In this document: positions 26,156 through 63,516 of the stretch, piece by piece
Position numbering within the stretch: the first letter of the stretch is position 1
Layout of the letters: every line of letters starts with the position of its first letter
Assembly: GCA_050952725.1 (NCBI GenBank)
Contig: JBMNLN010000001.1
Coordinates: 752,108-816,107, forward strand
Reading direction: 5' to 3'
DNA from: Bacilli bacterium
GTDB lineage: Bacteria; Bacillota_I; Bacilli_A; RFN20; CAG-826
Length of the DNA stretch: 64,000 nucleotides
The notes under the pieces: generated by a model
Databases searched by the model: none
Told to the model about the DNA's origin: nothing
The model's input: the letters and a program-made list of their open reading frames with translations, nothing else
Position numbers and translations under genes: made by a program

Positions 26156-26162
26156 TGCTTTT

Positions 26163-26253: not shown

Positions 26254-26265
26254 TCAAGTCAATCG

Positions 26266-26300
26266 GGTTTGAATGATCAGTTCAAACCTTTTTTCTTTTT
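26266..26300 (+). terminator. Rho-independent terminator closing the tRNA cluster.
   Basis: GGTTTGAAtgatcagTTCAAACC is followed by TTTTTTCTTTTT. Confidence 0.5.
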
Positions 26301-26337
26301 AAGGGAAGAAGTAGAATCTTAATGCTATAATAAACCC

Positions 26338-26874: not shown

Positions 26875-26949
26875 GCCTTCTATCTTGATTAATTTTAATT
26901 TGCTTTCTTTTGACTTTTCCAAGCTTTTTCAATACAATGTTGTAGCAAT

Positions 26950-27026
26950 GGCGGATGTGGTGAAGAGGTTAACACACCTGGCTGTGAACCAGGCATTCGT
27001 GGGTTCAAGTCCCATCATTCGCCCCA
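26950..27026 (+). tRNA. tRNA-His (anticodon GTG) with a genomically encoded G-1.
   Basis: G-GCGGATGTGGTGAAGAGGTTAACACACCTGGCTGTGAACCAGG...CATTCGC-C-CCA. The 8-bp acceptor stem with G-1:C73 is the hallmark of bacterial tRNA-His. Confidence 0.85.
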
Positions 27027-33488: not shown

Positions 33489-33565
33489 GATGTTGACTAT
33501 ATCACTTGCTATTTTTAATTAATTGAATTAGAATGTTAACGATAACATTTATCTAACCAAGAGGG

Positions 33566-34846: not shown

Positions 34847-34848
34847 CG

Positions 34849-36774: not shown

Positions 36775-36788
36775 AGGAGACCAAAAGG

Positions 36789-39281: not shown

Positions 39282-39285
39282 CGCA

Positions 39286-40629: not shown

Positions 40630-40832
40630 GATGAAGTGATAAAAAAACCAACTATTTCCTTGGACCTCGAACACAATTTGGGGGTTTACTCTCCCCAAAG
40701 CCCAAGCACCAGATGGTCAACTTCATGAGGAAAAAGCCAAGTCTACGGACCACATTTGATTAAAAATGTTGCTAGAACATTAAAAACTAGCGAAAATGGT
40801 ATTATCTAAAACTAATGAAGGAGGAAAACAAC

Positions 40833-42726: not shown

Positions 42727-44847
42727 TTAGGTTAATTCCCACTGCAGTCGGGGCTTAGTTCCAGTAAAATCCCAAATTTCCAAATTGTAATCGAGTTCGC
42801 TCAGGAGTTCATCACTAGTATATCCGGTAATACCATCGCCTTTTCCAGTTGCGCTATTACCGATGCGGTCCATGGTGGACTGAGTTTTATCATAGGCACA
42901 ATGATAATAAATCGTCGCATGGCTTCCCCCGGGAGTAACACCGACAAAAGCTCCGACAAAAACATCTTCCCCAGTCTTATCAATCACGGTGGATAAGGCC
43001 AGACAGCAAATGAGCAGATTGTTATATCCTTCCATGCGCCCGACAAAGCCGCCAAGGTGGACTAAGGTGGTCGCGGTCGCTTGCACGCTGCCTTCGGCAT
43101 AGCAATCGCTGATTCCCCCATATCCCATATAACCGACAAAGCCGCCGCTATAATTCGCCCCGGTTACCTCCATATTGGCTTTAGCTTGCATAATCTGCAT
43201 ATAATTATCCAGCATTTGCCCGATAAAACCACCCGTGGGCGTCTGTTCACTGCCAGTCGCGGTCAGAGTGCCATTGGCACTCGAGCGACTGATCATCACT
43301 CCTTGTTCTGATTGACGCAGCAAGCCGATAAAGCCCCCGCTAATCGCATAGGCGGCAGTGATCTCGCCCTGATAATGGACATTTTCATAAATGGAGTTAT
43401 CACTAACTCCTGCAATGCCCCCAGCTTTAGCGATGCCATTACGAGCATGGAGGTTGATATCGATGATCACTTCCACATTTCTAATCGTGGCATGGGAAAT
43501 AACCGCGGATAGCCCCCCGATATGGGCTTCAAAGGTTTGATTGGAAGCGCTATTGACGAGGCCGACCAACTTCAAGTTGGAGATGGAGGCCCCATTTAAG
43601 CAACTGAAGAAGCCCACATTTTGGTTTTGATCACTGACATCAATCCCACTAATCGTATGCCCCGCGCCATCGAAACGGCCTCCAAAGGCTTTGGGTGTCC
43701 AAGGCTCGGTTAAGGTGATATCGGCATTTAACCGATAGGAACCTAAAAAAGTCATCGCCCGCAATTCGGTTTCGGAGTTGATTAAGGTGACATTGAAATA
43801 ATATTTCTCGCTCAGAGCAGAGGGATAATTGGCGCTTGAAATCGCCTGAACTTGGACATAAACACAACCTTCAATTGTCGCCTGCGGCATCGTGTAGCGA
43901 TTCGTGGTGATGCCGGCGACTAAATTTCCATCGATATAGATTTGATAACCATCCGCGTAGGGCACAGCCGCAAAGGTTAAGATATTTCCCGTCAAAGTGA
44001 GATTAGTTGGAGTGGTAAGGGTGATTTTTGGCACGTTGATTTCGACTTGGGCTATTTCGCTATTGAGGTAAGTAGCACTATCGCCACGGGCTTGAATTTC
44101 CACAGTGAGCATCCCGGTTTGATAATAGCCGATCTCACAGCGATTGGTGGGGCTCATCCCCCATAAAGACCCATCGATGACAACTTTATATTCCCTCGCC
44201 TGCGCGACAGCATCCCAAAGAAGAAACCCGTCGTCAAATGCGATATTACGCGGAGTGTCCAGCTGTTGTTTAATCGTGATTTCTTCGCTATAAGCACTCG
44301 ATTTTAAATAGGGGTCACTGGCCGTAGCTAAAACTTTAAGGCTGACGACCTCGCTAGTTAAATCGTATGCAGGATGATTGACATATTGTTCTGAGGCGTG
44401 ATTGATTTTTACGATATAGCCAGTCGCTAAGGGAACTTCATCCCAGAAGATCTGGTTGCCAACTTGGCGCAGATTTTGCGGGACTTCTAAAGTTAAGTAA
44501 GCGGTAAAGGTTTGGACTTCCGAATAAGGCGAACAAGAAGTCAAATGGCATGCTTTGACTTGGACGGTGATTATCCCATAGGTGGTCGCGGGTAATGCGA
44601 AATAATGTTCATAAGTAGTATGTTCGTCCGCATTGAGCAAAACGATATAGGAACTCGCTCCGTCCACCGCCTCCCAACTAAGGGTGCGCTCGGTCAAGGT
44701 AATCTGCTTGGGCGCGGTTAACTCACTGCTGGTGTCTTGACTGGTCGTCAGGCTGGATTCTTCGCGACTCGATTGGGGTTGACATCCAAAGAGGAGAAGA
44801 GCCACACTGGCGAAACTGAAGAAGAGATTGCGAAACTTTTTCATCAT
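42727..44847 (-). CDS. Lipoprotein with four FN3-like repeats and multiple GLUG motifs.
   Basis: The lipobox is LLLFGCQ. Repeated units of about 70 aa match (...W..V..A..Y.V...). The C-terminal half has repeated GG(F/I)(V/I)G...G motifs (GGFVGYMGYG, GGFIGQM, GGIAGVSDN, GGFVGRMEGY), which is the GLUG motif. Confidence 0.55.
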   Translation of the reverse strand: MMKKFRNLFFSFASVALLLFGCQPQSSREESSLTTSQDTSSELTAPKQITLTERTLSWEAVDGASSYIVLLNADEHTTYEHYFALPATTYGIITVQVKACHLTSCSPYSEVQTFTAYLTLEVPQNLRQVGNQIFWDEVPLATGYIVKINHASEQYVNHPAYDLTSEVVSLKVLATASDPYLKSSAYSEEITIKQQLDTPRNIAFDDGFLLWDAVAQAREYKVVIDGSLWGMSPTNRCEIGYYQTGMLTVEIQARGDSATYLNSEIAQVEINVPKITLTTPTNLTLTGNILTFAAVPYADGYQIYIDGNLVAGITTNRYTMPQATIEGCVYVQVQAISSANYPSALSEKYYFNVTLINSETELRAMTFLGSYRLNADITLTEPWTPKAFGGRFDGAGHTISGIDVSDQNQNVGFFSCLNGASISNLKLVGLVNSASNQTFEAHIGGLSAVISHATIRNVEVIIDINLHARNGIAKAGGIAGVSDNSIYENVHYQGEITAAYAISGGFIGLLRQSEQGVMISRSSANGTLTATGSEQTPTGGFIGQMLDNYMQIMQAKANMEVTGANYSGGFVGYMGYGGISDCYAEGSVQATATTLVHLGGFVGRMEGYNNLLICCLALSTVIDKTGEDVFVGAFVGVTPGGSHATIYYHCAYDKTQSTMDRIGNSATGKGDGITGYTSDELLSELDYNLEIWDFTGTKPRLQWELT

Positions 44848-47357
44848 GAACCTCCCAAACGCGGCCGATGGGTAATCGTCGGGGTGATAACTAAGTAATA
44901 GGAAGGGAGATTAATCACTTCCTGCGTATCGCGATTAACCACATAGGCTTGTAAGTAATAATCTTGATCAAAGGCTGCAAGCGAGAGATCTAAGGTTTGA
45001 GAAATCTCTATTCCTTTTGCATATTTTCCTAAAGGCAACTTGCTAAAATGGGGAACGGAGTATTCTTTCCTAATCGGCGTAAATAGCGCATCACCATTTA
45101 AGTGATAACCTTCGATGACCAATTCAATCGGATAATCGCGCTTATCGTTTTCATAGCGCTTATTCAAGGCGAAAGTTGCGATTTCTAAATTCGCCCCCAC
45201 GGCGTTAAACGCGGCTGCTCCGGCGCTAAAATCCCCGCGAGCAGTCGCCAAACCGACATACATATCGCCCGCGCCATAATAGAAATACCACTGATTTTGA
45301 TGACGGATCATCGTGTCGGCAAACATGCATTTATTAAATAAACCATAGTCAATTTTATTCGTATCGGTAGGATACATCGTCGGTTCATCTAAATCTAAGT
45401 GCACATTGGTTAACTCAAACGGATTGCTCTGTGTGGTTTTTAAGACGCCTAAGGCATAGAACCAGCCGCTGGCATTGGGCTGTTGATGTTGGATGTTCGC
45501 ATCGCTTAAGACCCCACCCCCATACATCAGATAAATATCTTGGTCATCGGGTCCGTAGATCTTGCTTATCGCCATACAGGACTCATTGCCTTTTGTTAAC
45601 TTTTCGATGTCATTGGGACCAAAATGGCGCGTGTCGATATCGATGATATCACTGGCCTCAATCCGGGTGACATCACTAGTAAAGCCAATGCGCGTATAGC
45701 CGCCATCTTTCATATAAATCATATATACTCGTCCAAATTTACCCGGGCGCGGATCGCTGATTTGGATGGCGTTTCCTTCCGGATCGGTGACGAAGGTTCC
45801 CGATTTATATGCATGCGCGTAATCGGGGGCGAGCCGCCCGACTTTATGATAGGTGACAAAGTCATGGGTGTAGAGCATCCCTTCGCGAGTAATCGCGTAA
45901 TCATACATCGTATAGGTGATGTAATAGGTGGTCAATCCGCCCCGATTAGGGTCGTTGACAATTTTAAAAATTCGCGGATCTTCCAACCCCCCACCATGTT
46001 CTTCGGGGAGGGTCGGCCAGGCAATCGGGTTATGCTTTCCCCGCGTAAAATGCACGCCATCAAGGGAAGAAGCATAAGAGAGCGTTGACATATGCCCTAA
46101 TTCATAACGCTCCCCATAGTAAGTATCGAAACGGTCAGGCAATTCGGAGCGATAGATCATATGAAAAATCTGGCGCTCATCATCATAAATCACCGCGGGG
46201 TTATAAGTCGCATAACTTTCAAATCCGGGAATATTACCATCGGCAATACTCGCCATATTTGTCACCACCCCATCCGCTTCAATCGGATAACCCTGGGGAG
46301 CTAAAATTAGCCCTCCATCGTGCAAGGTGATGTTACTCATCGCCACCCAAGCGGGACTATTGTGGGAGAATTCCATTGGATGGCCGAGTTTGACCGCGGG
46401 TAAATTGCTTTCGCAATAAAGATCAAACGAATAAATCGAGAACGTCGATTGCCACGGATAACGTCCGGTTTTCTTCGTGGCTTCGCTTGTTTCGCGTTGG
46501 ATTAATTCCACCTTCAGATAACGGCTGGTAGTGCCACTGGGGATTTTAAAGGTCTCGACTTCGCCAAGCCCCGCCTCGGTTCCAGTTAGGTAAACCCATC
46601 CCGCATCTGCGCGCGCTGGCGCGCTTGCCGATATTTCTGGGTGAACATAAATTTGATAGATGCGGGCGAAGGAAACTTCCCAGCGCACTTTAATTAAGTC
46701 AAAGAGCACCGGCGTTTTTAAATCGAAAATCAAACCTTGATCATCAAGCTGGGCTGAGGCCCATCGCGTCTGGGCCTGATTATCTAAAATAGCGGCAGCG
46801 GGTAATTCCACCTCATTTTCATAACTCGAGGCATAGATAACCTCGCCTCCGACTGCTAAACTCTTTGGTCCATACACTTCAAAACTGTAAAATGAATAGC
46901 CGTATTCGAGCGCGCGCCTCACTCCTTGAAATTTGACAAATTGCGTTTCAATCCACTGCGGAAAGATGATTTCATCGATTTCACTGCTAGTTTTATGCAC
47001 CGTCGCTACCGTGGTCCAAGTCACCGCGTCCATCGACATTTGCAACTGGTACTCACGCGCATAAGCGGCCTCCCAGTCAAGGACGACTTTGCCCACGCGT
47101 TCGACTCCGCCTAAATCGATGTAAAAGAAGGCGTTATCCTCAGGAATTGCGGCATAACGGGTATCATTGCGGGCATCGACAGCGTGAATATTGTAATGAT
47201 CATCAGTATGGCCACTAGAGACGACGCGGCGCATAAAAGCTAGATCAACTCCGTATTCGGTCGTCCCCGCAACTTGGAGCGGTTGTTTTTTCGGCAAAGT
47301 GATGGTGCTTGCAAGCCAAGTTGTCGCTAAAACCAAAAGTCCCTTTCGTAATTTCAT
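44844..47357 (-). CDS. Secreted multidomain glycosidase: two F5/8-type C (discoidin/CBM32-like) domains plus a GH130-like β-propeller.
   Basis: The start is set at the ATG complement of 47355-47357, with a GGAGG RBS and a signal peptide (MKLRKGLLVLATTWLAS). Discoidin-like repeats are present (FYIDLGG..VGKVVLDWE / LIFDLKTPVLFDLIKVRWE). NPAVIYDD..IFHMIYR ... SSLDGVHF ... GGLEDPRIF ... YYITYT resemble GH130 motifs. Confidence 0.6.
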   Translation of the reverse strand: MKLRKGLLVLATTWLASTITLPKKQPLQVAGTTEYGVDLAFMRRVVSSGHTDDHYNIHAVDARNDTRYAAIPEDNAFFYIDLGGVERVGKVVLDWEAAYAREYQLQMSMDAVTWTTVATVHKTSSEIDEIIFPQWIETQFVKFQGVRRALEYGYSFYSFEVYGPKSLAVGGEVIYASSYENEVELPAAAILDNQAQTRWASAQLDDQGLIFDLKTPVLFDLIKVRWEVSFARIYQIYVHPEISASAPARADAGWVYLTGTEAGLGEVETFKIPSGTTSRYLKVELIQRETSEATKKTGRYPWQSTFSIYSFDLYCESNLPAVKLGHPMEFSHNSPAWVAMSNITLHDGGLILAPQGYPIEADGVVTNMASIADGNIPGFESYATYNPAVIYDDERQIFHMIYRSELPDRFDTYYGERYELGHMSTLSYASSLDGVHFTRGKHNPIAWPTLPEEHGGGLEDPRIFKIVNDPNRGGLTTYYITYTMYDYAITREGMLYTHDFVTYHKVGRLAPDYAHAYKSGTFVTDPEGNAIQISDPRPGKFGRVYMIYMKDGGYTRIGFTSDVTRIEASDIIDIDTRHFGPNDIEKLTKGNESCMAISKIYGPDDQDIYLMYGGGVLSDANIQHQQPNASGWFYALGVLKTTQSNPFELTNVHLDLDEPTMYPTDTNKIDYGLFNKCMFADTMIRHQNQWYFYYGAGDMYVGLATARGDFSAGAAAFNAVGANLEIATFALNKRYENDKRDYPIELVIEGYHLNGDALFTPIRKEYSVPHFSKLPLGKYAKGIEISQTLDLSLAAFDQDYYLQAYVVNRDTQEVINLPSYYLVITPTITHRPRLGGS

Positions 47358-49882
47358 AATCTTTCCTCCAATAGGTTGATATTGAGTATTTTGGTCAAAT
47401 ATAGATGCGCATAAAGGGCACAGGGCCAAGTAAACCAATCGCGCGTGTATTCACTGGGATCATTGGCGTTAAAAGCCTCGTGCATCACATAAGTTCCCGC
47501 GGTCGTTGCCGTCATATAGGCAATCATCGTTTCAATTTCGCTTTGATTATCGGTGGTTAACCCCTGCATTGCTAACGCCATATGCCAGGGAACGGGAGTG
47601 TCAGGATGAGGGTTAGTTCCCCCGATCATATCGTGGGGATCACCAATGCCTTTCGCGTAAGTTCCCTCGTAATAATAGGGATTGTCTTGACTCAAGATAA
47701 AGGCTCTCGTATTTAAATAAGTTTGGTCATCTTTTTCCGCATATCCGAGCCAGGGAATTGATAATAAACTCGGAATATTAGCAGCGTCCATCAAGAGTTT
47801 CCCTTGCGCAGAATGCAGATCATGACTAAAACCATCAACTTCAAAAGCGTAGATTTTGCCATAAGTAGGGTGCTGATAGGTCGCATAGGTTTCGATCGCC
47901 GCTCTGACTTCACAAGCGAGCGTTGTCGCTAGATTTCGGGCTTCGGGAAAGCGATTGATCTCGTTGAGCAAAACCGCTATTTTCTCCAAAGTGGCAACAG
48001 CAAACATATTGCCAGGAATGAAGAATTTATAGTAAGTAACATCATCGCTGGGGCGATAGCCACTCCAGATTAAGCCGCTTTCGGTATTGACTTCATGGGG
48101 GCCGAAATCGCGATCACGACCCGTAATCATATAATTTTCATCGCGATGATCGCGCTCATTTTGCAAAGTGGTTAAGACCTTGTCCAAAGTAATTTGGAAG
48201 AAGGAGTCAAAGATTGTCGCATCTTGGGTAATGCGATAATATTTCTCCGCGAGCCATAAAGGATAAATCAAGGAATCGATTTCATATTTCAATTCAAAGA
48301 CGCTGCCATCAGCCTTAAAAGCGTTCGCATATTGATTGCGGCGCAATAGTTCAAATTGCCGCAAGAGCAAACCGCGCACTAATAACTGCACATCGGAATC
48401 AATCTTCATAAATTGCAAGTAGGGCAAAACCTGCGCACTGGAATCGCGCAACCACATCGCATCGATGTCGCCCGTAATGATAAAGGTGGTGCCATTGCGC
48501 TGGTTGGTTTGGATGACACTGGGCCAAGAGCCCTGGCTATTGGCAATACCATCCAGAGTCGCATAAAAAGTTTTTTGGACGGTGATTCTAGTGGTTTCGT
48601 CGCTGATTCCCTCAATTAGGGGATTGACATAACCGCGCATCGCTTGAAAAGTATAATCCGCGGTGGTCAGACCCAGTAAATTAAAGGCGACCTCATCACT
48701 AATCGCTGGAGTGTTTTCCAAATCGGTGATGATTTGTTCTAACGATAATAACCCCCAATCTCCCCGGGAATTATCGACGAATTCCAAGTAGAGAGCGCGA
48801 TTTTGATAAGGAATTAAATCGAGATAGTAAAGATGAGTGGCTTCCTCATCGGCCTCCTTCCAGCGGTCGCTAAAGAAGCGGAAAACCTCCTGATTAGTAC
48901 CGACGACTTTTAAGGAAACATAGGTCAGTTCGCGGTGTTTGGTCGCCCCAAGACGGAGTGAGGCAAACCGTTGACTCGTCACTTTAAATGCACTTGAACG
49001 CAGCACGCCAATCTTGGTTTCATCGGGGCGATTACTAAGGCGCTTGGCGGCATTAATATGGCTTTCTTGGAAGACTCCATCTTCCCCAATCACCGTGTAA
49101 CCAGAGAGCCCGTGACGGAAGTCGCCGTTATAAAGTGCGGTTGGGGTTCCCGCATAGTCATTGAAAACGGGCTTGATATCCTCAGCTTTGGTAAACCCGG
49201 TCAAATCGGGTCGGCTTTCGTAATAAGTCACAAAATGATCGACGACTAAATAACCGTAATTAGCCGTGGAACAATCGACTAAGGCAATTTTAATTTCTCT
49301 TCCTAACAAGCAACTTAAATCGACATAATAATCATTCATATTTTCGACGCGATAGGCGGGATGATCAGTGCTTGGCACATTAAATAATTGATTCCCGACG
49401 CGGTATAATTCCACCTCGGTTAAAGCATCGATAAAGGAAATGTAGGTAAGCGCCTGAAGATAGGCACCCCCTAATTTAAAGGTGATGATCCCGCTCCCTC
49501 CGACTATAAAAGCGGCCGAATGCAAAATCCCTTCTGCGCTTTCGTTTTGACTAAAGTAAAAGTAAGTTCCATCTTTGTTGTAGGGGACATCGGGATGGAC
49601 TTGATGAAAGTCGACGATATCGGAGTTTGAAAAAGCGTCGCCTTGGATGAGTTCCCATCCGGATAGATCCCCAGTTTCAAAATTTCCGTTGGCGATTTGA
49701 TAAATGCTCGGATCTTCTTCCGAACTCGACGAATCACCACTGCTCGCACTTGAGCATTCACTGCTCGAGGGATTAGATGAGTCGTGACTGCTGGAATGCG
49801 GCGGTTGACAGCTGAGCAAGATGAAAAAGTTCAGAAGTAAAAGGGAAATCTTTGAAAAATATCGTTTTCGTTTCACTTTCAT
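47354..49882 (-). CDS. Lipoprotein: two N-terminal CBM4_9-like β-sandwich domains plus a GH125 (exo-α-1,6-mannosidase family) catalytic domain.
   Basis: The lipobox is ILLSCQ with a Ser-rich linker. Two NG(N/D)FE.G..GW ... (I/V)L(H/R)S..F...G.G.I.FKLGG units are present. The C-terminal ...TFIITGDIDAMWLRDSSAQVLPYL... is the GH125/DUF1237 signature. Start codon choice (ATG 49882 or GTG 49876) is uncertain. Confidence 0.6.
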   Translation of the reverse strand: MKVKRKRYFSKISLLLLNFFILLSCQPPHSSSHDSSNPSSSECSSASSGDSSSSEEDPSIYQIANGNFETGDLSGWELIQGDAFSNSDIVDFHQVHPDVPYNKDGTYFYFSQNESAEGILHSAAFIVGGSGIITFKLGGAYLQALTYISFIDALTEVELYRVGNQLFNVPSTDHPAYRVENMNDYYVDLSCLLGREIKIALVDCSTANYGYLVVDHFVTYYESRPDLTGFTKAEDIKPVFNDYAGTPTALYNGDFRHGLSGYTVIGEDGVFQESHINAAKRLSNRPDETKIGVLRSSAFKVTSQRFASLRLGATKHRELTYVSLKVVGTNQEVFRFFSDRWKEADEEATHLYYLDLIPYQNRALYLEFVDNSRGDWGLLSLEQIITDLENTPAISDEVAFNLLGLTTADYTFQAMRGYVNPLIEGISDETTRITVQKTFYATLDGIANSQGSWPSVIQTNQRNGTTFIITGDIDAMWLRDSSAQVLPYLQFMKIDSDVQLLVRGLLLRQFELLRRNQYANAFKADGSVFELKYEIDSLIYPLWLAEKYYRITQDATIFDSFFQITLDKVLTTLQNERDHRDENYMITGRDRDFGPHEVNTESGLIWSGYRPSDDVTYYKFFIPGNMFAVATLEKIAVLLNEINRFPEARNLATTLACEVRAAIETYATYQHPTYGKIYAFEVDGFSHDLHSAQGKLLMDAANIPSLLSIPWLGYAEKDDQTYLNTRAFILSQDNPYYYEGTYAKGIGDPHDMIGGTNPHPDTPVPWHMALAMQGLTTDNQSEIETMIAYMTATTAGTYVMHEAFNANDPSEYTRDWFTWPCALYAHLYLTKILNINLLEERL

Positions 49883-49887
49883 CCTCC

Positions 49888-51345
49888 TTAGTAGGCGAGA
49901 TTACGCGCATGATTAACGGTGGTTAAATCGGGTAAATCCTCGTAATAGGTCTGAATCTCGCTGACAAAGATGGTGTCCCAACTATCCGTGGCGTTATCGA
50001 CGATTTCCAAATAGGCGACTTGATCGATGTAATCGCTCAGGTCGAGGAAATATTCGACCAGGTTAGTGCCATCATGCCGCTGATTGGCAAGGCGGTAGAT
50101 TTCGCGATTCGAACCATATAACCGCACGGAAACATAGGTATCTTTATCGAAACGGACTCCTTTACCCGCTGCGAGTTTAAGCGAAGCATAACCGACACCA
50201 TCGATAGTAAATAAAGATGAACGGATCAGCCCGCGCCCTGCATCGCCCTGAGCGTTGCTTTTAAGAATCATCGCTTCGACATGAAAAGTCGAAGAATTTG
50301 ACCACCCTAAATTATCTGACGTCTTCCACAGGGCCATCCCTTGGCGAAAGTCACCATTCGGGAGTTGATTCGGCGCGTAATCTTGGGCAAAGGTCGGAAG
50401 TTGATTAAGCGCTAGATAAGATGCCGTTTCATCTGGCACAACTTCATGATAAGTCTCAAGGGCATCAAAGGTGAGATAATCATCTTCACGCCCGCCGTAG
50501 TCGTTAATGACCGCATAGAGTTCTTCGCCTAAATAAGCGCTTAAATCCGCGCGATAAGAAGTGGTCGCACCATCGCGACTGGGCGAAAAGGGGTCATGAT
50601 ATTGAGAGGCGCTATAACGGGCAATTTCGTGATGATCACGGGCCCGATAAATCGCCAGATAAGCTAAATCGGCGACCCGTCCTGCCCCCATTTTAAAAGT
50701 AAGATAGCCACTTCCTCCTAAAGTAAAGAGCGAAGAAGTTAATCTTCCGATTTTTTCTTCATAAAGCGCTTTATTTTCGTTTAGAGGCGGTCCGAGTAGA
50801 TATTCTCCATGGTCGGTTAAAGGTTCCGGTGAAGTTTTTCCCCGCGCGATAACCGCATCATTAGTAAAAGCTAATAAGTTCCGTTCTCCTTTGAAAACGG
50901 TGTGCGCGGTCCAACCAAATAAGTCACCAGTTTCAAAGGAGTGATTGATAATTCGATATCGATTATGGCGATCGAGAACTTCGAAGTTCAAAGTGCTTTG
51001 ACCGTTTGGAGCATGGACTTTTAGCGCATAAACGCCTGGGGCAAGATTGACTAAATAGTGTTTTTTAATATAGAGATGGTCGTCGATGATTTCGTAATCA
51101 CGAGCGATGATATTGTGACCACTCAAGAAGGAAATATCGTATTTCGTATTATCAAAGACATATTCCAAATCGTTTAATTGATCAAAATCAAATGCATCGA
51201 CAATTTTGGTGAGAACAAAATCATCAACTTCCGCTTCGGGGCTATTTCCATTTGCACTCGGCGAAGAAGATGGCGTTTCTGAAAAGGACTGCCCACATCC
51301 AGTAAGGAGTAATAAATTCAACAATAGCGTTACTTTCAATCTCAT
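49888..51345 (-). CDS. Lipoprotein with tandem CBM4_9-like domains and no catalytic domain.
   Basis: The lipobox is LLLTGCGQ. The motifs INHSFETGDLFGWTAH ... GRLTSSLFTLGGSGYLTFKMGAG and PNGDFRQGMALW ... GLIRSSLFTIDGVGYASLKLAAG are paralogous to the N-terminus of the adjacent GH125 protein. Confidence 0.55.
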   Translation of the reverse strand: MRLKVTLLLNLLLLTGCGQSFSETPSSSPSANGNSPEAEVDDFVLTKIVDAFDFDQLNDLEYVFDNTKYDISFLSGHNIIARDYEIIDDHLYIKKHYLVNLAPGVYALKVHAPNGQSTLNFEVLDRHNRYRIINHSFETGDLFGWTAHTVFKGERNLLAFTNDAVIARGKTSPEPLTDHGEYLLGPPLNENKALYEEKIGRLTSSLFTLGGSGYLTFKMGAGRVADLAYLAIYRARDHHEIARYSASQYHDPFSPSRDGATTSYRADLSAYLGEELYAVINDYGGREDDYLTFDALETYHEVVPDETASYLALNQLPTFAQDYAPNQLPNGDFRQGMALWKTSDNLGWSNSSTFHVEAMILKSNAQGDAGRGLIRSSLFTIDGVGYASLKLAAGKGVRFDKDTYVSVRLYGSNREIYRLANQRHDGTNLVEYFLDLSDYIDQVAYLEIVDNATDSWDTIFVSEIQTYYEDLPDLTTVNHARNLAY

Positions 51346-52268
51346 ACGGGCATCAACCTTTCATATTCGAGAAATGGATCTTTCATCAGGGCATAATGGC
51401 CTTCAGCATCGCTTAAACCGACATACAGGGTGGCCAAATGATTCGCGTGACGGATGATGCCGCCCGCAAAAACCACATCGACCAAATCGGGACGTTTACT
51501 AGCGCCGGGGGCAAAATCTCGACGTTCACAGATGATTTTAAGAGGAGTTGCCACCTGGGTTTTCGGATTAAAAGCAAAAGTCATCCCGTAATAATGTCGC
51601 ACCTGAGTTTCGCTCATCATCGCGATATGGCCCAAGATGCCGATCCATCCATTTTTCAGAAGGAGCACATCGTTGACTCCGCCCCAGGTCAAATCGCCAA
51701 ATTGTCCGGGAATAATCGGCGCCTGTTCGATCAGTTCGGTGGTAATATCGCTGAGTTTTGGGGCAAAAGTGTAGCCGATTTTACCGAGTCCCGCCTTTTC
51801 TCCTTGCGGCCGAGTAAAGATGTGAATTCCCCTATAATCTTGAAATAAGCGCACATCTTTCATCTGCCGAGGCGCACTTAAGACTTTTTTGAAAGAGTCG
51901 AGACCTGATCCTTGATAAAAACTGGTGTGCCAGTGCGTGATTTGCCTTGTGGCATCAGCGAATATTTCCGTGCCCCCAATCATTAATTGGCCATCGATTA
52001 CGGCGATATATGGATCTTGGAGAAAAGGAAGCTGATAGGGAGTGGCGCGATAAGTAGCGTCATCGATTGCTTCAAAAAAGACCACGCGAGAAATTTCTTG
52101 ATCACGAGGTTCGACCCGTCCTGCTAAATAGGTTTTCCCCTTCCAGACCAGGGGGCGCGAAATGTTATAGACATCTTCCTGGTCCACGCCTAAAAAGGTA
52201 ATCTTTTGCGTTTTAATGATCGCCTGATGTTGCCGATGGTCTTGTAATAATTTTGCAATTTTCTCCAT
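51342..52268 (-). CDS. Hypothetical β-propeller-like protein, possibly a DUF1861 or GH130-like glycosidase-fold protein.
   Basis: The 308 aa product has no signal peptide and sits in the operon between the permease and CBM-lipoprotein genes. The family call is by weak recall only. Confidence 0.35.
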   Translation of the reverse strand: MEKIAKLLQDHRQHQAIIKTQKITFLGVDQEDVYNISRPLVWKGKTYLAGRVEPRDQEISRVVFFEAIDDATYRATPYQLPFLQDPYIAVIDGQLMIGGTEIFADATRQITHWHTSFYQGSGLDSFKKVLSAPRQMKDVRLFQDYRGIHIFTRPQGEKAGLGKIGYTFAPKLSDITTELIEQAPIIPGQFGDLTWGGVNDVLLLKNGWIGILGHIAMMSETQVRHYYGMTFAFNPKTQVATPLKIICERRDFAPGASKRPDLVDVVFAGGIIRHANHLATLYVGLSDAEGHYALMKDPFLEYERLMPV

Positions 52269-52272
52269 ATTG

Positions 52273-53169
52273 TTATCCTTTAATGCCGACCCCCGCGACC
52301 GATTGTAAAAATTTCTTCTGCATAAAACTAAACAAGAAGACGACGGGAATTAAACTGATAAGACTAGCCACCGAGACGTAGTTCCACGGGATTAAATAGG
52401 AACTGGAGCCGCCTTCGCGATATAAATTTTCAAAGATGGAAATGCTATTGGCCATCACCCAATGCGATTTATCGCTAATATAGAGAGCGGGTCCGTACAA
52501 GTCGTTATAGGTCCCGACGAAGTAGAGAAGAATTACCGTGGTAATCGCCGGTATATTGAGGGGTAAGATAATTTTAAAGAAGATAGCGACTTCCCCATAC
52601 CCATCCATCCGCGCGGCTTCAATCAGGGCTTTGGGGATAGTTTGGAAAAATTGTCGGAACATGAAGATTACAAAAATATCGGTGGCAAACCACGAAGCAA
52701 TCCACAGGGGAATATAGGCGACTTCCTTCAGTCCGGAATTGACCATGAATTCATAAATTGGGATACCGAGAAGTTCTCCGGGAATCATCATCGTCGACAG
52801 CAAGATGAAGAAGATGATGTTCTTGCCAGGAAATTTAAAGAAAGTAAATCCATAAGCCGCTAGCGAACAGGTGATAATCGTCCCCAAGGTCTTTAAGACA
52901 AAGATGATCATCGTGTTACAAAACATCCGCCCAATTTTATAATCAGGATGATTCAAAACGAACTTGAGATTCTCTCCTAAGGCGAAAGAATGGGGGAACA
53001 TCGTCGCTTGCGTTGCCGCCTCATTTAAATCTTTCATCGCCGTAATCAATAAGTAATAAAGTGGGACCAGCGCGATAAAAGCAAAAAACGATAACGCAAA
53101 ATAGATGAAGGCTTTGCGGGCGTTTTCTTTCCGTTTCGGGTTCGTTTTCTTGGCAGAGGTGGGCTTCAT
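52273..53169 (-). CDS. Carbohydrate ABC transporter permease (MalG/UgpE-like).
   Basis: Six transmembrane helices and an EAA loop (EAARMDGYGEVAIFFKIILP). Confidence 0.75.
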   Translation of the reverse strand: MKPTSAKKTNPKRKENARKAFIYFALSFFAFIALVPLYYLLITAMKDLNEAATQATMFPHSFALGENLKFVLNHPDYKIGRMFCNTMIIFVLKTLGTIITCSLAAYGFTFFKFPGKNIIFFILLSTMMIPGELLGIPIYEFMVNSGLKEVAYIPLWIASWFATDIFVIFMFRQFFQTIPKALIEAARMDGYGEVAIFFKIILPLNIPAITTVILLYFVGTYNDLYGPALYISDKSHWVMANSISIFENLYREGGSSSYLIPWNYVSVASLISLIPVVFLFSFMQKKFLQSVAGVGIKG

Positions 53170-53171
53170 GT

Positions 53172-54101
53172 TCAGGTGATATCCTTTTCGACATAGAATT
53201 TTGACATGAAGAACTGAAACAGGGTAAAAGCGAAGATAATCAAGAAGAACAACCAGGCCATCGCCGCTGCATAACCAAGGCGGAAAGGCATATTAAAGGC
53301 AGTCATAAACATATAGATAGGGAATAAGAGAGTGGAGTTACTCGGCCATCCTTGCCCATTCCCCATCACGAAGGCTAGGGAAAAAGCGCGAAGGCCATCG
53401 ATGGTAATCAACACCACATTGAAAAATAACATTGGAGTAATCAGCGGCAAGGTGATTTTGAAGAACTGCTGAACCCGCGTCGCTCCTTCGAGTTCGGCCG
53501 CTTCATAGTAATGTTCGGGAATACTTTGGAGCGCGGCGAGAAACACGAGCATTTTGACTCCAAACCCCATCGAGCTAATTAAAATCATCGTTAACAATGC
53601 GGAATCAGGGGAAATATGCCAAAGGGGAAGATGGACAAATCCCAAGAAACTCAAGACTTGGTTAACCAGACCAGTACTTGGATTAAATAAGTTTTTATAG
53701 ACGGCCCCAACTGCAAAACTAGGGATGATAAACGGAAGCATATAAATCGTGCGAAAGACCCCGATTCCTTTTACTTTGCTATTGAGTAACAAAGCGAGAA
53801 TAAGCGAAGTCACCAGGACAAAGAAACCGCTCACTAAGGCGAAAATCATCGACTGCTTAATCGATAAGGCGAAGAGGTGATCGTGTTTTAAAGCATATAG
53901 ATAATTTTCCCAACCGATAAACTCCGTATTCGTATCAAAGATGCTCTTATTGGTGAATGATAAGATCAAGGTTTTAACAATCGGATAAAAGTAAAAGAGC
54001 AAGAAGCCAATTAAGGCAATCCCAGTGAAAAGAAGAAAATAACGATAATCTTTTTTGAAATTCTTCTTAAATAACTTCCATTTGGTCTTAATCGCGCTCA
54101 T
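53172..54101 (-). CDS. Carbohydrate ABC transporter permease (MalF/UgpA-like).
   Basis: Six transmembrane helices and an EAA loop (EAAELEGATRVQQFFKITLP). Confidence 0.75.
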   Translation of the reverse strand: MSAIKTKWKLFKKNFKKDYRYFLLFTGIALIGFLLFYFYPIVKTLILSFTNKSIFDTNTEFIGWENYLYALKHDHLFALSIKQSMIFALVSGFFVLVTSLILALLLNSKVKGIGVFRTIYMLPFIIPSFAVGAVYKNLFNPSTGLVNQVLSFLGFVHLPLWHISPDSALLTMILISSMGFGVKMLVFLAALQSIPEHYYEAAELEGATRVQQFFKITLPLITPMLFFNVVLITIDGLRAFSLAFVMGNGQGWPSNSTLLFPIYMFMTAFNMPFRLGYAAAMAWLFFLIIFAFTLFQFFMSKFYVEKDIT

Positions 54102-54104
54102 CGA

Positions 54105-55421
54105 CTAATCTCCATATAAATTGCGATAATAGCTATTCACATTATTTTCAATGCGGGTTAAGACCGCGACCACATCGGTTTCGGCTCCGCGGCCATCGAT
54201 CATCAGTTTATATAATTCACTCATCACGAACTCGCGCATAATCTTAGAAAAATCTTTTTCTTGTGGCAGGACCACCGCTTCGTTAATCGCCGCAAAAAGA
54301 GCCTCAATCTTTATTCGTTTTTGTTTTTCGCGGGGGAGTTCTCCAATATAGGCTTGCATGTTTTTAAGGGCCCCAATTTTGCCGTGTTCATACATTTTTA
54401 GCGCTCCTTCTTTCCCGGCCCAAAGTTTTAAAAAGTTAAATGCAGCTTGATTTTTTTTGCTGCGCACGGAAATGCCAAAAGCATCCGCGGATAATTCTCC
54501 ACCTGGAGCATTAGGACGGCCAACTGGTTTAGGCAACACTTCGATATCCCAGTCGAGATCGAGAACATCATAGGAGAACCAGTCCCCGATATGTCCGCCA
54601 AAAATCATCGCCACATTCCCGGCTGAAAAGGAATTAGCACTGGCCATCTCATTAGCGTTAGGACTGAATTTAACCCCTTCTGTCCCCATCGCCTTTTCCC
54701 GGAAGAAAGTCGTCGCGGCGATGACTTCAGCACTCGTTAGATTAACTTGATGGTTATGCGTATTAGGGACATAGAAAGTCCCGCCCATTTGCTGGACATA
54801 AACATACCATTCTCCCCACCAGTTGAGTTGGGTTTCGGCGCCGAAATGATGAGGCGGCGCTCCAGTATATTTGGTCATCGCCACGCCAGCTTTTTGAAAA
54901 TCATCATAAGTCCAATCCGCCTGGGGATAGACGCTTTCGTCAGCCTTGAGATCAAGCGCACTGCGGATGGCTGGAGCATGTTGATCAAACATCGCTTTGT
55001 TGTAATAAAGTAGCGAGGTATTAATCGAGGTAGGAATCGCGTACACTTTGCCATCAAGGGTTAAGGCGGCCACGATTGGATCGAGATAATCACTTAATTT
55101 AAAGTCGTTATCAGCCCTGATTAAACTAGTTAAATCGATTAAAGAGGGGCGCATCGCTTCAATGATGACCGTACTCGTTTTGATGATATCGGGCTCATCT
55201 TTGGTGCCGATTAATTTTCCCACATCTTGACCATAGGTCGCCTTAACCGCAATCCCTGTTTGATTTTGATAAAGAGCAAATAAATCATCATATCGTCCAT
55301 CATCTTCAATATCGAGAGCGATTTTAATCTCATTGAGATGATCATGACCAAAACAACCTGTTAGCGTCATGCCTAAGGTCGATAAACTCAACAAGAAACT
55401 CACTTTAAGGTACCGTTTCAT
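54105..55421 (-). CDS. Carbohydrate ABC transporter substrate-binding lipoprotein.
   Basis: The lipobox is MTLTGCFG. It has a sugar-SBP family-1 profile. Confidence 0.7.
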   Translation of the reverse strand: MKRYLKVSFLLSLSTLGMTLTGCFGHDHLNEIKIALDIEDDGRYDDLFALYQNQTGIAVKATYGQDVGKLIGTKDEPDIIKTSTVIIEAMRPSLIDLTSLIRADNDFKLSDYLDPIVAALTLDGKVYAIPTSINTSLLYYNKAMFDQHAPAIRSALDLKADESVYPQADWTYDDFQKAGVAMTKYTGAPPHHFGAETQLNWWGEWYVYVQQMGGTFYVPNTHNHQVNLTSAEVIAATTFFREKAMGTEGVKFSPNANEMASANSFSAGNVAMIFGGHIGDWFSYDVLDLDWDIEVLPKPVGRPNAPGGELSADAFGISVRSKKNQAAFNFLKLWAGKEGALKMYEHGKIGALKNMQAYIGELPREKQKRIKIEALFAAINEAVVLPQEKDFSKIMREFVMSELYKLMIDGRGAETDVVAVLTRIENNVNSYYRNLYGD

Positions 55422-56449
55422 AAAACCTCTCCTAAATTCGCAGCGATTTCATCATAGGTTAAGGTGGCCACAGCAATCGCCTCATCGCACACCCCGTAAT
55501 AGATTTTCACTTCATGTTCTTCAAAAACGGCACCACAGGTAAAGACGACTTCGGGCATCAATCCCCCTTTTTCAAAAGGTTCCGTGGGGGCGATGAGCGG
55601 CTCTTTACTTCTTTTAAGGACTTTACTCGGGTCATCTTTAGCAACTAAGAGGGCGGCGAGATGATAACGGTTGAAAGAATCCGCACTATGGTAGAGGACC
55701 AACCATCCATCTTTGCTCAGGTGAGGAACAGCGCCAGCCCCTAAGCGCACACTGGCCGTATAGTCAATCCGCGCTCCCGTTAATACTTGATGCTCTCCCC
55801 AATGGAGCAGATTCGTACTCCGGGCCACCCAGATATCGAGACGGCCAAATTCACTAGTACTCGGCCGGTGATAAGCATAGTAATATCCGTTAATTTTCTT
55901 TGGGAATAAAACCACATCTTTATTATCGAAATGAAAGATATTGCCCAACCGCTCAAACGTTTTAAAATCGCTGGTCACCATCAGGCGGACATTGATTCCA
56001 TACTCACTGACTGCGGTATAGGAAATATAATACTTGTCGTCGATTCTGGTAATGCGGGGATCTTCTAGACCGAATTCTTCATAGATTGAATCGGGTAAAA
56101 TCGGGGTTTCATCAAAGGTGAAGTGATATCCGTCCTGACTTCGTCCCACGCGGAAATGACTGATGGAGGTCAAATAATTTTGCTGGTGATTGCGAATCAC
56201 GCGCACATCCGAGAAGTCATAATGCGAATCATCAAGGGCAAACTTCAAAAAGGTATAGTCATGGTTGCGATAGACGGGAATGACGACATGAGAATCTTTT
56301 TGGAAAGCGATCGTTTCGGCGACACGAGCTAGCATAATATATTGATTATCAACTTTAATAATCGCGGGATTAAACACCCCAAACACCTTAAAATCAGGAC
56401 GAGTTGGTTGAAGGGTCTCTTTGGTAATAATTAATCGCTTCTTCATCAT
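55418..56449 (-). CDS. GH130-family β-mannoside phosphorylase or glycosidase.
   Basis: FGVFNPAIIKVDNQYIMLARV, FGLEDPRITRIDDKYYISYTA and DVVLFPKKINGYYYAYHRP are GH130 hallmark segments. The protein is intracellular, with no signal peptide. Confidence 0.75.
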   Translation of the reverse strand: MMKKRLIITKETLQPTRPDFKVFGVFNPAIIKVDNQYIMLARVAETIAFQKDSHVVIPVYRNHDYTFLKFALDDSHYDFSDVRVIRNHQQNYLTSISHFRVGRSQDGYHFTFDETPILPDSIYEEFGLEDPRITRIDDKYYISYTAVSEYGINVRLMVTSDFKTFERLGNIFHFDNKDVVLFPKKINGYYYAYHRPSTSEFGRLDIWVARSTNLLHWGEHQVLTGARIDYTASVRLGAGAVPHLSKDGWLVLYHSADSFNRYHLAALLVAKDDPSKVLKRSKEPLIAPTEPFEKGGLMPEVVFTCGAVFEEHEVKIYYGVCDEAIAVATLTYDEIAANLGEVL

Positions 56450-60503: not shown

Positions 60504-61493
60504 CTAACGAATGATGGTTTTAACAGAATCTCTTTCAACTAATGTGACGGTGATTTGCTGCATCACCCGCTTCTTATTCATGATGTCAATCATTGCGTTA
60601 TAAGCTTTTTTAGCAAAGGAATCACGAGCGGGACCAATGGAGGTTAATTTGGGCAAGAGATTTTCACAGAGTTGGGTATTATCGAAACTGACCACCGAAA
60701 CATCATCGGGGATTTTAAATCCATTGAAGGAGAGGATGGAGTAAAGTTTTTGTGCCGCGGCATCACAGTGACAAATAAAAGCGGTGGGCATCTCATCAAG
60801 CGGAAGATCAAATATCACTTGACTCAATTCAATGTTTTCATTGATATGCCAATTTGGGCGATAGATTAATCCGTGTTCATTAATGGCTTTTAAATATCCA
60901 AAATAGCGATCGGAAACGGCTGCCGTTTTATTGATATTACCAATAAAACCAATCTTTCGGTGACCTTTTTCGATCAAATAGTTGGTGAGTTTATACGCGG
61001 TTTGATAGTTATTGTTATACATAAAGTTCAGCGTGTATAACGGCGAATAATAGTCGATGAACAAGGAAGGGATGCTGACATCTTCCATGTATTTAAAAAC
61101 TTCCGGATCCAATTCACCTGCAAAAAACACCCCATCAGGTTTTAAAATACTAATGGCCGATTTAAGTTTTTCAACTGGATTGATATCGTCAACAAAAACA
61201 ACTTGGAGCATACTATCGGCTTTGGATAATTCACCGCTTAAATAGTAAAAGATATTTGAATAGTATTGCTCGGATGGAGTTAAGAAGAAGTCCTTATTAA
61301 TCACAAAAATAAAACGACTATTATCCATGACTTGGCGAGGTGATTTTACGCCATACCCTACGGAAGTGGCATAGGTTTTAATTCTCTTACGCAGATCTTC
61401 ACTCACGCCTTTTTGATTATTGAGTGCTTTATGGACGGCGACTGTGCTGATATTGAATTTTTCTGCGATACTTTTTAATGTGACTTTTTTCAT
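60504..61493 (-). CDS. LacI-family transcriptional regulator.
   Basis: The N-terminal HTH is VTLKSIAEKFNISTVAVHKALNN, followed by a periplasmic-binding-protein-like sugar-binding domain. Confidence 0.8.
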   Translation of the reverse strand: MKKVTLKSIAEKFNISTVAVHKALNNQKGVSEDLRKRIKTYATSVGYGVKSPRQVMDNSRFIFVINKDFFLTPSEQYYSNIFYYLSGELSKADSMLQVVFVDDINPVEKLKSAISILKPDGVFFAGELDPEVFKYMEDVSIPSLFIDYYSPLYTLNFMYNNNYQTAYKLTNYLIEKGHRKIGFIGNINKTAAVSDRYFGYLKAINEHGLIYRPNWHINENIELSQVIFDLPLDEMPTAFICHCDAAAQKLYSILSFNGFKIPDDVSVVSFDNTQLCENLLPKLTSIGPARDSFAKKAYNAMIDIMNKKRVMQQITVTLVERDSVKTIIR

Positions 61494-61839: not shown

Positions 61840-63516
61840 ATGAAGAAACGCTTATCGATTTCCCTCATTGTTGGCGCTTTTGCTTTACTCACTAGTGTAT
61901 TCTTACCGAAACCTGAGGCGGGGCAAGTAAGAGCTGATCACACACCTTATCAAGTGTTAAATGGGGGCTTTGAAACTGGCGATTTTACTGGTTGGAAGAC
62001 ATATCGACTTTGGAAAAATGAAGATGGAATGGCGGCTTTTGATCCTTCGCTGGTCCATGGATATGCGACCTATTTCGGATCGCATCCCTATGACCGTGAT
62101 GGAAACTATCAACTCGGTGTTTCTTCAGGTCAAAATGCTAGTGATGGTCCAATCAAATGGGATGGCGGAATGTCAGAAGAGCGCATGGGGTATCTCCGTT
62201 CGAGCGATTTTATCCTCGGGGGCAGTGGCTGGATTAGCTTTAAGCTCGGAGGTGGTAAACACCCATCCTTTGCTTATTTATCCGTGCGCAAATCCACTGA
62301 CCATACTGAGGTGGCGCGGTTTGCGAATCGCCACTACAATGATAAGACGGTAGCTACTGCACAATATGGTTCCGATATTACGAACGCAGAAGCCTTTCTA
62401 TTCCAATATTATTTCGATTTGAGTGAACACTTGACGGAAAAACTTTACTTTTTACTTTGTGATACCTCCTCTTGGGAGTGGTCTGTTCTTTCCGCTGATA
62501 GTTTTGTCACTTACTACGCTGATGCCCCAACTCCCAGTGCGGATCAAACTGCGGTTAATATCTTGCCCGAAGTAAAAAATATCGCAACCGCTGATAACTC
62601 AATCAAAAATGGTTTTTTCGCTTATGGTCTTGACGACTGGAGCACTTCCGCCACGCAAGGCGATAAGGATATGGGGTGGAATATCGACGGTGACTCCGCC
62701 CGTAGTAATAAAAACGGCAAAGGTGATGGCGGAGTTGGTATTCTCCGCTCAAGTGCCTTTATTTTAACTGACAATAAATACGTAAAATTTGATTGGGCAG
62801 GCGGACTCAAATATGACAAACAAATCTTTGTATCCGTCAAAGAAGTGGGAACCAATATCGAAAAATTGCGGTTTGTCCGCAGGGAAAATTTATCTGGTAA
62901 AGAAAGTGAAAATTTCGATAATCATCTGCTCGATTTGACCGGGCTAGATGACACGAAAAAATATTACTTAGAATTTGCTGATAACCGCGCTTCTGGCTGG
63001 GGTGTGTCCTACGTTAAAGGAGTCCAATTGGTAAACTATTACACACCCGATGGAGACCGTGCCGTTGCCATTAGTCATTTACCGACGAATTTTAATATCG
63101 ATCCTCTTCAAGAAGCGACTAACTATGGGGCATACTTCCTAGCGCAAACGGCGGATATGTGTCTAGCCGGAACGGGAAATCTCGTCAATTGGGGAACGCT
63201 TGAGACCGAATATGGCTTATTATCAAATGCCGCAAAAGATATCTTCGTCGATAATGCGACTACTGATGCTAATGTCGTGGCCGCCCGGGAAAGAGCGGTC
63301 TATCTCTTCAATAAATATGGCGCAACCGAAGGATGGACTTTCTTCATCGTCGATTCGACGAATGTCCCATATCCTAAACCATCGGGATTTAAACCAAATG
63401 ATAGCGCGCTTGCCTCGGAAGTATCGCTGAGCAATCTCATCACCTTAGCGACGATTGTTTTAGGAAGTGCGGTTTTATACTTAGCGATGCGGCGCAAACG
63501 TCTAGTTATTAAATAG
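61840..63516 (+). CDS. Surface protein with tandem CBM4_9-like domains and a C-terminal transmembrane anchor.
   Basis: The start is set at ATG 61840, with an AAAGGAGAG RBS and a signal peptide. The motifs LNGGFETGDFTGW ... GYLRSSDFILGGSGWISFKLGGG and IKNGFFAYGLDDW ... GILRSSAFILTD..YVKFDWAGG are present. The C-terminus is LITLATIVLGSAVLYLAMRRKRLVIK. Confidence 0.55.
   Translation: MKKRLSISLIVGAFALLTSVFLPKPEAGQVRADHTPYQVLNGGFETGDFTGWKTYRLWKNEDGMAAFDPSLVHGYATYFGSHPYDRDGNYQLGVSSGQNASDGPIKWDGGMSEERMGYLRSSDFILGGSGWISFKLGGGKHPSFAYLSVRKSTDHTEVARFANRHYNDKTVATAQYGSDITNAEAFLFQYYFDLSEHLTEKLYFLLCDTSSWEWSVLSADSFVTYYADAPTPSADQTAVNILPEVKNIATADNSIKNGFFAYGLDDWSTSATQGDKDMGWNIDGDSARSNKNGKGDGGVGILRSSAFILTDNKYVKFDWAGGLKYDKQIFVSVKEVGTNIEKLRFVRRENLSGKESENFDNHLLDLTGLDDTKKYYLEFADNRASGWGVSYVKGVQLVNYYTPDGDRAVAISHLPTNFNIDPLQEATNYGAYFLAQTADMCLAGTGNLVNWGTLETEYGLLSNAAKDIFVDNATTDANVVAARERAVYLFNKYGATEGWTFFIVDSTNVPYPKPSGFKPNDSALASEVSLSNLITLATIVLGSAVLYLAMRRKRLVIK

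Follow-up and report, generated by a model that had tools for sequence, protein, structure and literature searches.

The 64,000-nucleotide stretch analyzed here (the window), taken from the 1.33-Mb contig JBMNLN010000001.1 of a metagenome-assembled genome (MAG) of a Bacilli bacterium, encodes three proteins that together contain six copies of a repeated β-sandwich domain, which we assign to the carbohydrate-binding module (CBM) family CBM38. These proteins are (i) a lipoprotein of 842 amino acids (aa) with a domain of glycoside hydrolase (GH) family GH125, (ii) a 485-aa lipoprotein encoded beside it, and (iii) a 558-aa surface protein encoded on the opposite strand. Their NCBI entries are MGI6714139.1 ("glycoside hydrolase family 125 protein [Bacilli bacterium]"), MGI6714140.1, and MGI6714149.1 (both "hypothetical protein"), respectively. 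In each of them, a first copy (A) is followed by a second copy (B), and this tandem pair is referred to below as the A-B cassette. The coordinates of all features are compiled in Table 1.

Table 1. Features of the locus, in the order of their position in the window
Feature	Position	Strand	Basis
Secreted protein, two F5/8-type-C domains and a GH130-like domain, immediately downstream of the GH125 gene	44844..47438	-	Pfam
GH125 lipoprotein, 842 aa: lipobox ILLSC, Ser-rich linker, A-B cassette, GH125 domain	47354..49882	-	
GH125 domain (metal-independent exo-α-1,6-mannosidase family), residues 434-827	47402..48583	-	Pfam PF06824
Copy B of the 842-aa GH125 protein, residues 246-396, divergent B-type module	48695..49147	-	hmmsearch and A/B typing
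Copy A of the 842-aa GH125 protein, residues 59-229, canonical CBM38-type module	49196..49708	-	hmmsearch, six-copy profile
Noncatalytic lipoprotein, 485 aa: lipobox LLTGC, linker, X2-like Ig region, A-B cassette	49888..51345	-	
Copy B of the 485-aa protein, residues 324-476	49918..50376	-	hmmsearch and A/B typing
Copy A of the 485-aa protein, residues 127-310	50416..50967	-	hmmsearch
Weak CBM_X2-like Ig region of the 485-aa protein, residues ~40-125	50971..51228	-	PF03442, E 0.031
DUF1861 protein, two ABC permeases, sugar-binding lipoprotein, intracellular GH130 phosphorylase-like enzyme	51342..56449	-	
HTH/LacI-type regulator between the operon and the 558-aa gene	60504..61493	-	By-eye reading of the N-terminal HTH only
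Surface protein, 558 aa: signal peptide, A-B cassette, ~120-aa region without family, C-terminal transmembrane anchor, basic tail	61840..63516	+	
Copy A of the 558-aa protein, residues 34-235	61939..62544	+	hmmsearch
Copy B of the 558-aa protein, residues 252-404	62593..63051	+	hmmsearch and A/B typing
C-terminal hydrophobic anchor of the 558-aa protein (…LITLATIVLGSAVLYLAMRRKRLVIK)	63424..63513	+	Read from the translation

The predicted catalytic domain of the 842-aa protein covers the GH125 family nearly completely (PF06824, E 6.4e-109, 365 bits, profile positions 7-412 of 414), in agreement with an initial annotation of this DNA that had described a tandem pair fused to an α-1,6-mannosidase-type domain. 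As that annotation had also stated, the other two proteins contain no catalytic domain recognizable in Pfam or NCBIfam scans; the same scans of the three proteins returned no model that matches the repeat domain. Lipoboxes of the type [LVI][ASTVI][GAS]C were read in the 842-aa protein (…FFILLSC followed by QPP) and in the 485-aa protein (…LLLLTGC followed by GQS). The latter had been regarded as consisting entirely of the tandem pair, and it is indeed a lipoprotein with two tandem copies, but these are preceded by the weak CBM_X2-like region. PF03442 matches this region better in the orthologue that occupies the same position in a sister locus, L001 (E 2.6e-4), and the confidence of the AlphaFold2 (AF2) model is low over it. 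The 558-aa protein, previously thought to be tail anchored, does have a C-terminal transmembrane segment, but it also has an N-terminal signal peptide, which lacks a Cys; it is thus predicted to be a type-I anchored surface protein and not strictly a tail-anchored one. Its homologues P0010 and P0014 end in the same type of tail, and a copy-level match of 81% identity was found in P0028, whose cluster includes OQC10426.1 from the MAG Tenericutes bacterium ADurb.Bin087. In the 558-aa protein, the stretch that separates copy B from the anchor (residues ~405-525; 63052-63414) has no Pfam match. It is conserved in P0010 and P0014, with a common …VAARERY/A… motif and a conserved Cys, and is predicted to be an uncharacterized juxtamembrane domain.

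To compare the copies, we ran BLASTP among the three proteins with the database size set to 1e6. The tandem pairs align in register at 30 to 32% identity (E 1e-34 to 1e-46), and off-register alignments of first with second copies gave E values of 1e-8 to 1e-10. There are therefore six homologous copies, two in tandem in each protein, far beyond what chance would produce, and a profile made from all six confirms the count given in the initial annotation. That annotation had assumed a uniform length of about 160 aa, whereas the copies measure 150 to 200 aa and are of two kinds, B being shorter than A and divergent from it. Its two motifs hold for the first copies, which carry NGxFETGDLxGW and LRSSxFxLGGSGxxxFKLGG, and are found only in degenerate versions in the second copies. 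Within the window, identities amount to 33 to 37% between A copies, 28 to 34% between B copies, and 18 to 30% between A and B. Typing with A and B profiles separates the two kinds, and the idea of a single homogeneous six-copy repeat was consequently rejected. The closest copies in other proteins are 48 to 81% identical per copy, and full-length orthologues of the GH125 fusion are 54 to 58% identical. Since the cassettes of the window are less identical to each other than to these outside relatives, they are old paralogues, each conserved in its own right, and a recent duplication within the genome was rejected.

The family CBM38, previously called X39, was established on the GH32 cycloinulo-oligosaccharide fructanotransferase (CFTase) AAG47946.1 of Paenibacillus macerans (residues 32-389); with its two β-sandwich domains, the module binds inulin and levan with low micromolar affinity (PMC10076258). 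A protein of Defluviitalea raffinosedens was annotated with dbCAN as CBM38(44-189)+CBM38(221-367)+CBM38(409-527)+GH32(808-1121)+CBM38(1313-1448) (PMC7355431). Nearly the same layout is seen in P0034, a relative of the window proteins with copies at residues 36-214, 220-398, and 403-558, a GH32 domain, and a further copy at 1328-1494. This order of three copies, GH32, and one copy, present in some relatives with arrays of A-type copies, pointed to the CFTases. We therefore searched CFTases with a profile made from the six window copies only, with E values scaled to 1.8e9 sequences. It matched the Paenibacillus polymyxa CFTase (P0271, 1333 aa) at residues 74-247 (1e-32), 260-380 (0.011), and 1168-1323 (3e-12) and the Bacillus circulans CFTase (P0265, O52973, 1503 aa) at residues 56-229 (1e-30), 242-413 (2e-34), and 1331-1486 (1e-11). 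We take residues 32-389 of AAG47946.1 to be equivalent to residues ~73-395 of P0271, as both proteins have 1333 aa and are nearly identical. In pairwise comparisons, the A copies are 34 to 40% identical to the CFTase repeats (E 1e-21 to 7e-39): copy A of the GH125 protein reaches 40% identity with repeat 1 of the P. polymyxa enzyme over 172 residues (E 7e-39), and the A copies of the 485-aa and 558-aa proteins reach 38% (E 2e-27) and 36% (E 1e-30), respectively, with repeat 2 of the B. circulans enzyme. Identities of the B copies are 27 to 32% (E 1e-5 to 1e-11), copy B of the GH125 protein being 28 to 30% identical (E 3e-10 to 3e-11). These profile and pairwise matches identify the repeat as CBM38 and neither as a new family nor as CBM4_9; by this homology, all six copies are assigned to the CAZy family CBM38.

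The repeat had initially been taken for a CBM4_9-like domain of a possibly uncharacterized family. That the window proteins match no Pfam or NCBIfam model, that some relatives give weak matches to PF02018 (CBM_4_9), and that a CBM4-2 module is among the structural neighbors would speak for this. However, PF02018 matches only 4 of 73 diverse family copies, all below the gathering score and with a best E value of 5.9e-4, and covers none of the six window copies; the Pfam scan found no PF02018 match at E≤0.1 in the three proteins. Profile searches of the Protein Data Bank (PDB) sequences yielded marginal matches restricted to the first β-strand (8xmz and the CBM61 structure 2xom) and no solved relative. 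The absence of a Pfam or NCBIfam model for the domain explains why it looked new. Given the direct homology to the CFTase repeats, a new CBM family related to CBM4_9 is highly improbable, and this view is refuted provided that the CFTase repeats are what CAZy calls CBM38. The literature on GH125 lipoproteins with CBMs, on 8XMZ, on GH32 with SLH in Paenibacillus, and on the LX16 CFTase yielded nothing on the repeat module, and in the library searched, CBM38 and GH125 were found linked only in CAZyme lists.

The structural models agree with this assignment. Copy A of the GH125 protein was modeled by AF2 as an all-β jelly roll (pLDDT 89.1, pTM 0.87), which supports the β-sandwich fold proposed earlier, and both modules of the 485-aa protein were modeled with confidence (pTM 0.70 despite ~110 disordered residues), so that the two consecutive β-sandwich domains by which CBM38 is defined are present in the AF2 models. 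The best Foldseek neighbors of the copy-A model are the MAM domains of neuropilin-1 (5L73) and RPTPµ (2C9A), with an E value of 1.7e-5 and a TM-score of 0.57. These eukaryotic protein-protein adhesion modules are 9 to 12% identical to the model, and Pfam scans gave no MAM match in the window proteins or the family copies; the likeness is thus at the fold level only. CBM4-2 as well as porphyran- and alginate-binding CBMs are also among the neighbors. The CBM4-2 module of the Rhodothermus marinus xylanase (1K42, 2Y64; E 6e-4 to 8e-4, TM-score 0.46 to 0.52, 14% identity), a remote neighbor, appears to be of the same jelly-roll fold class as the window copies and has an "NGGFE…GW" motif in the first strand as they do, but neither it nor PF02018 has a significant sequence relationship to them. 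Foldseek searches with the didomain model returned generic tandem β-sandwiches (TM-score ~0.2), which are uninformative on the A-B arrangement.

We also determined how widely the domain is distributed. A word-indexed homology search returned only 14 matches with the six-copy alignment and 9 with a 73-copy alignment, all of them unnamed fragments, whereas exhaustive searching with the profile of the six window copies retrieved 1,047 representatives (E≤1e-3), 250 of them at E≤1e-30. Representatives stand for clusters at 50% identity, and the 150 best were typed with one profile for the A copies of the window and another for its B copies. A number of features emerge from these data. (i) Nearly all representatives hold 2 to 10 copies, in proteins of up to 3,900 aa, and most begin with a lipoprotein-type signal peptide. 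(ii) One A followed by one B was found in 50 of the 150 representatives, and never B alone, B-A, or repeated B; all three window proteins fall in this A-B class, in which A and B are joined by a short conserved linker. (iii) B is missing from the other 100, in which two to ten A-type or unclassifiable copies form an array. Partners of these arrays include GH32 with Laminin_G_3 and SLH (e.g., Paenibacillus terricola WP_191201500.1) and FIVAR. (iv) Among 27 relatives of the A-B class, the partners are CBM_X2 (16 of 27), cadherin-like and Big_9 arrays (10 to 11 of 27), and a purple-acid-type metallophosphatase (5 of 27); Listeria-Bacteroides repeat arrays also co-occur with the cassettes. GH125 is the partner in 3 of 56 mixed-class representatives, and some A-B proteins have no partner at all. 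Giant A-array lipoproteins with up to 10 A copies (P0015, 3,900 aa, and similar proteins) contain recurrent stretches of ~265 aa between the copies that have no Pfam match and that look like another repeated domain alternating with the CBM38 copies.

The A-B cassette thus resembles the CFTase modules in several respects and differs from them in others. The CFTase repeats belong to the same domain family, form the same jelly roll of ~175 aa, and are likewise extracellular, and in the CFTase, too, a full-length module (residues 73-251) is directly followed by a shorter, divergent one (residues 258-395). The B type is nevertheless not recognized in CFTases, since the B-specific profile misses CFTase repeat 2. 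Unlike in the CFTases, the partner of the cassette is not GH32 but GH125, a phosphatase, or nothing, and its context is mannoside and not fructan utilization. The GH32 domain to which CBM38 is typically appended is missing from the window proteins; this appendage is an association and not a formal property of the family. For the two noncatalytic proteins, SGBP-B of Bacteroides thetaiotaomicron (7KWB) provides a functional analogy, as it also consists of anchored tandem β-sandwiches encoded beside enzymes and an importer. It is among the Foldseek matches of the didomain, but with a TM-score of 0.23 and no homology, and the organism of the window, which is of a Gram-positive-type or wall-less lineage, has an ABC importer and not SusC/D.

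Sister loci were sought in species-representative genomes with a full-length alignment of the GH125 fusion, and most of the loci recovered contain GH125 only. The N-terminal cassette was found in just 2 of 80 recovered GH125 loci, both in uncultured Firmicute MAGs: L001 (Christensenellaceae), which has three A-B genes, and L002, which has four. L001 repeats the gene order of the window, with a solute-binding protein, two permeases, DUF1861, an X2-A-B lipoprotein, A-B-GH125, F5/8C-GH130, and a GLUG protein, and contains an inserted gene for a 1,991-aa protein in which X2/cadherin arrays are combined with an A-B cassette. The F5/8C-GH130 gene adjoins the GH125 gene in L081 as well as in L001. 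A cassette combined with Pur_ac_phosph_N and a calcineurin-like phosphoesterase domain is encoded in L002 (6709-10131) and L083 (10001-10963) and is also represented by proteins P0137 and P0168. This A-B-phosphatase gene, which the window lacks, adjoins the A-B-GH125 gene in sister loci and may encode a phosphomannan-processing enzyme. GH32 was not detected by tblastn in the window or in L001, L002, L083, and L084, and Pfam scans of the window open reading frames (ORFs) of ≥180 aa other than that of the LacI-type regulator (60504-61493) found none either. Every locus examined is a carbohydrate utilization locus.

Additional observations concern the operon of the window itself. The ORF at 44844-47438 begins with a TTG codon (864 aa) that is probably located too far upstream, and it overlaps the GH125 gene at the latter's end. 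In the public annotation, the protein is 837 aa long, starts at MKLRKG…, and has a signal peptide. The same operon encodes two large lipoproteins nearly devoid of family assignments, of 681 aa (58347-60392) and 630 aa (56450-58342, only Big_2), which are candidates for unrecognized glycoside hydrolases or binding proteins.

Taken together, the six CBM38 modules are organized as three A-B cassettes that are held at the cell surface, two through lipid and one through a transmembrane segment, and that probably act as glycan-binding units for a mannan-type ligand. That the cassette binds a glycan at all is most likely, judging from its homology to a module with proven glycan binding, its surface display, and its locus with an ABC importer and intracellular GH130/DUF1861 enzymes, which together suggest a substrate-targeting unit. 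The cassette of the GH125 lipoprotein would hold the exo-α-1,6-mannosidase on its polymeric substrate, those of the two noncatalytic proteins would capture the same glycan at the surface, and the captured glycan would feed the adjacent ABC importer and then the intracellular GH130/DUF1861 enzymes. GH125 enzymes are exo-α-1,6-mannosidases that act on high-mannose N-glycans and on the debranched backbone of fungal α-mannan. In the mannan pathway of Bacteroides, phosphatases and GH125 act together while GH130 cleaves β-mannosidic linkages (PMC10154615). The A-B-phosphatases of the sister loci would fit the breakdown of phosphomannan, in which phosphatases and GH125 cooperate (PMC10154615). Given that GH32 is missing, that the mannoside locus is conserved, and that conservation is group specific as described below, we infer a mannan-type ligand (possibly fungal phosphomannan or high-mannose glycan) and not a fructan. 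The mannan ligand suggested in the initial annotation is plausible.

Conservation differs between the classes. In the A-B class, A and B alike have an invariant pair, E103/R106 (E158/R161 in copy A and E332/R335 in copy B of the GH125 protein), which is 28 to 45% conserved elsewhere in the family, whereas W38, conserved in 74 to 79% of the GH32-linked and array copies, is lost in the A copies of the A-B class. The core positions N7, F10, G13, W18, G63, S67, F70, D127, D142, and D154 are common to the A copies and the CFTase repeats. A more far-reaching proposal, which we advance tentatively and regard as possible rather than probable, is that the A-B cassette represents a distinct CBM38 subfamily in which a fungal-wall or high-mannose glycan (α-1,6-mannan or phosphomannan) has replaced fructan as the ligand, with the B module and the E/R pair making a new site. 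The cassette would then serve as the targeting device shared by the components (GH125, GH130, phosphatase, and binding proteins) with which wall-less or uncultured Bacilli and Clostridia forage for mannan at their surface. If true, this would be the first non-fructan specificity in CBM38.

Several points weigh against a mannan-binding cassette, and they lead to two alternatives. Fructans are the ligand of the only characterized CBM38, and the A copies resemble the CFTase repeats (up to 40 to 42% identity) as closely as they resemble each other (33 to 37%), so their specificity may be unchanged. The cassettes might accordingly retain the ancestral binding of inulin or levan and tether the cell or its enzymes to plant matter or to a levan biofilm matrix. 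The identity of the A copies to the CFTase repeats, with every core position in common, and the sole experimental datum for the family (PMC10076258) are in line with such a role, as is the orthology-based annotation in IMG, which groups the two noncatalytic proteins with fructan β-fructosidases. Neither of these proteins has a GH32 domain, and the IMG name "fructan beta-fructosidase" is evidently an annotation transferred through the CBM38 repeats of GH32 enzymes, in what looks like systematic misannotation. Since, in addition, GH32 is missing from the window and from the four sister loci searched, the cassette is fused to an α-mannosidase in a locus conserved together with GH130/DUF1861, and the A copies of the A-B class have lost W38 while the class as a whole shows an invariant polar pair of its own, we consider retained fructan binding unlikely.

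The remaining points concern the possibility that the cassette does not bind glycans but is a MAM-like protein-protein adhesion module or a rigid stalk that co-assembles or spaces the surface proteins of the locus. Its closest solved structures are the adhesion modules of neuropilin-1 and RPTPµ; 5 of the 27 A-B relatives are fused to a phosphatase and not to a glycosidase, and many are part of adhesin-like Ig/cadherin arrays, the co-occurrence extending to Big_9 and Listeria-Bacteroides repeats. An assembly or spacing role would explain why exactly one A-B unit is found on each of three to four proteins per locus, and all 50 A-B representatives have a single cassette per protein. The E/R pair, present in both A and B, could form an interface salt bridge and may equally mark the contact of A with B instead of a binding site. 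On the other hand, the MAM likeness is remote, at 12% identity for the TM-score given above, and is nearly matched by the scores of CBMs; glycan binding has been demonstrated in the family to which the cassette is clearly homologous (PMC10076258), and all loci examined serve carbohydrate utilization. An adhesion or spacer module is therefore quite unlikely in our judgment, and mannan-type glycan binding remains our preferred interpretation of the cassettes.

The domain family as such, CBM38, was already known, and no new kind of system is revealed by the window. New are the A-B didomain form, in which the B module is divergent, and the recurrence of this form on GH125 enzymes, phosphatases, and noncatalytic surface proteins in a conserved non-fructan locus. 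CBM38 is a small and poorly studied family, with one characterized member, no solved structure found in the PDB searches, and no Pfam or NCBIfam model; for lack of such a model, its members are left unannotated or mislabeled. The family has more than 1,000 clusters at 50% identity and a second, A-B didomain form, whose presence on α-mannosidases, phosphatases, and noncatalytic surface proteins suggests that its ligand range is likely wider. The assignment corrects a systematic misannotation and offers constructs for the capture of mannose-rich glycans by Gram-positive-type and wall-less gut or digester bacteria.

Other parts of the window contain further loci. Directly upstream, positions 32535-42536 harbor a second sugar locus with a LacI regulator, a solute-binding protein, a 641-aa fused double permease, two GH30 enzymes (830 and 468 aa), and a 573-aa protein with a CBM26-like module. 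If the GH30 enzymes are β-1,6-glucanases, the combination of GH30 and mannoside loci would fit foraging on fungal cell walls. A segment of low GC content (0.29 to 0.34, compared with ~0.44 elsewhere) occupies 18245-27026; it starts just after a tRNA-Cys gene and stops ahead of seven clustered tRNA genes. It has genes for an AAA_14/DUF4143 ATPase, an Mrr-type restriction endonuclease, a 775-aa DndB-like protein, and a D12 (Dam-type) adenine methyltransferase and is probably a horizontally acquired defense island. Beside the tRNA cluster, at 27368-28462, lies a gene for a regulator with HTH_3 and an M78 (ImmA/IrrE-type) peptidase domain, a combination typical of the control modules of mobile elements or prophages.

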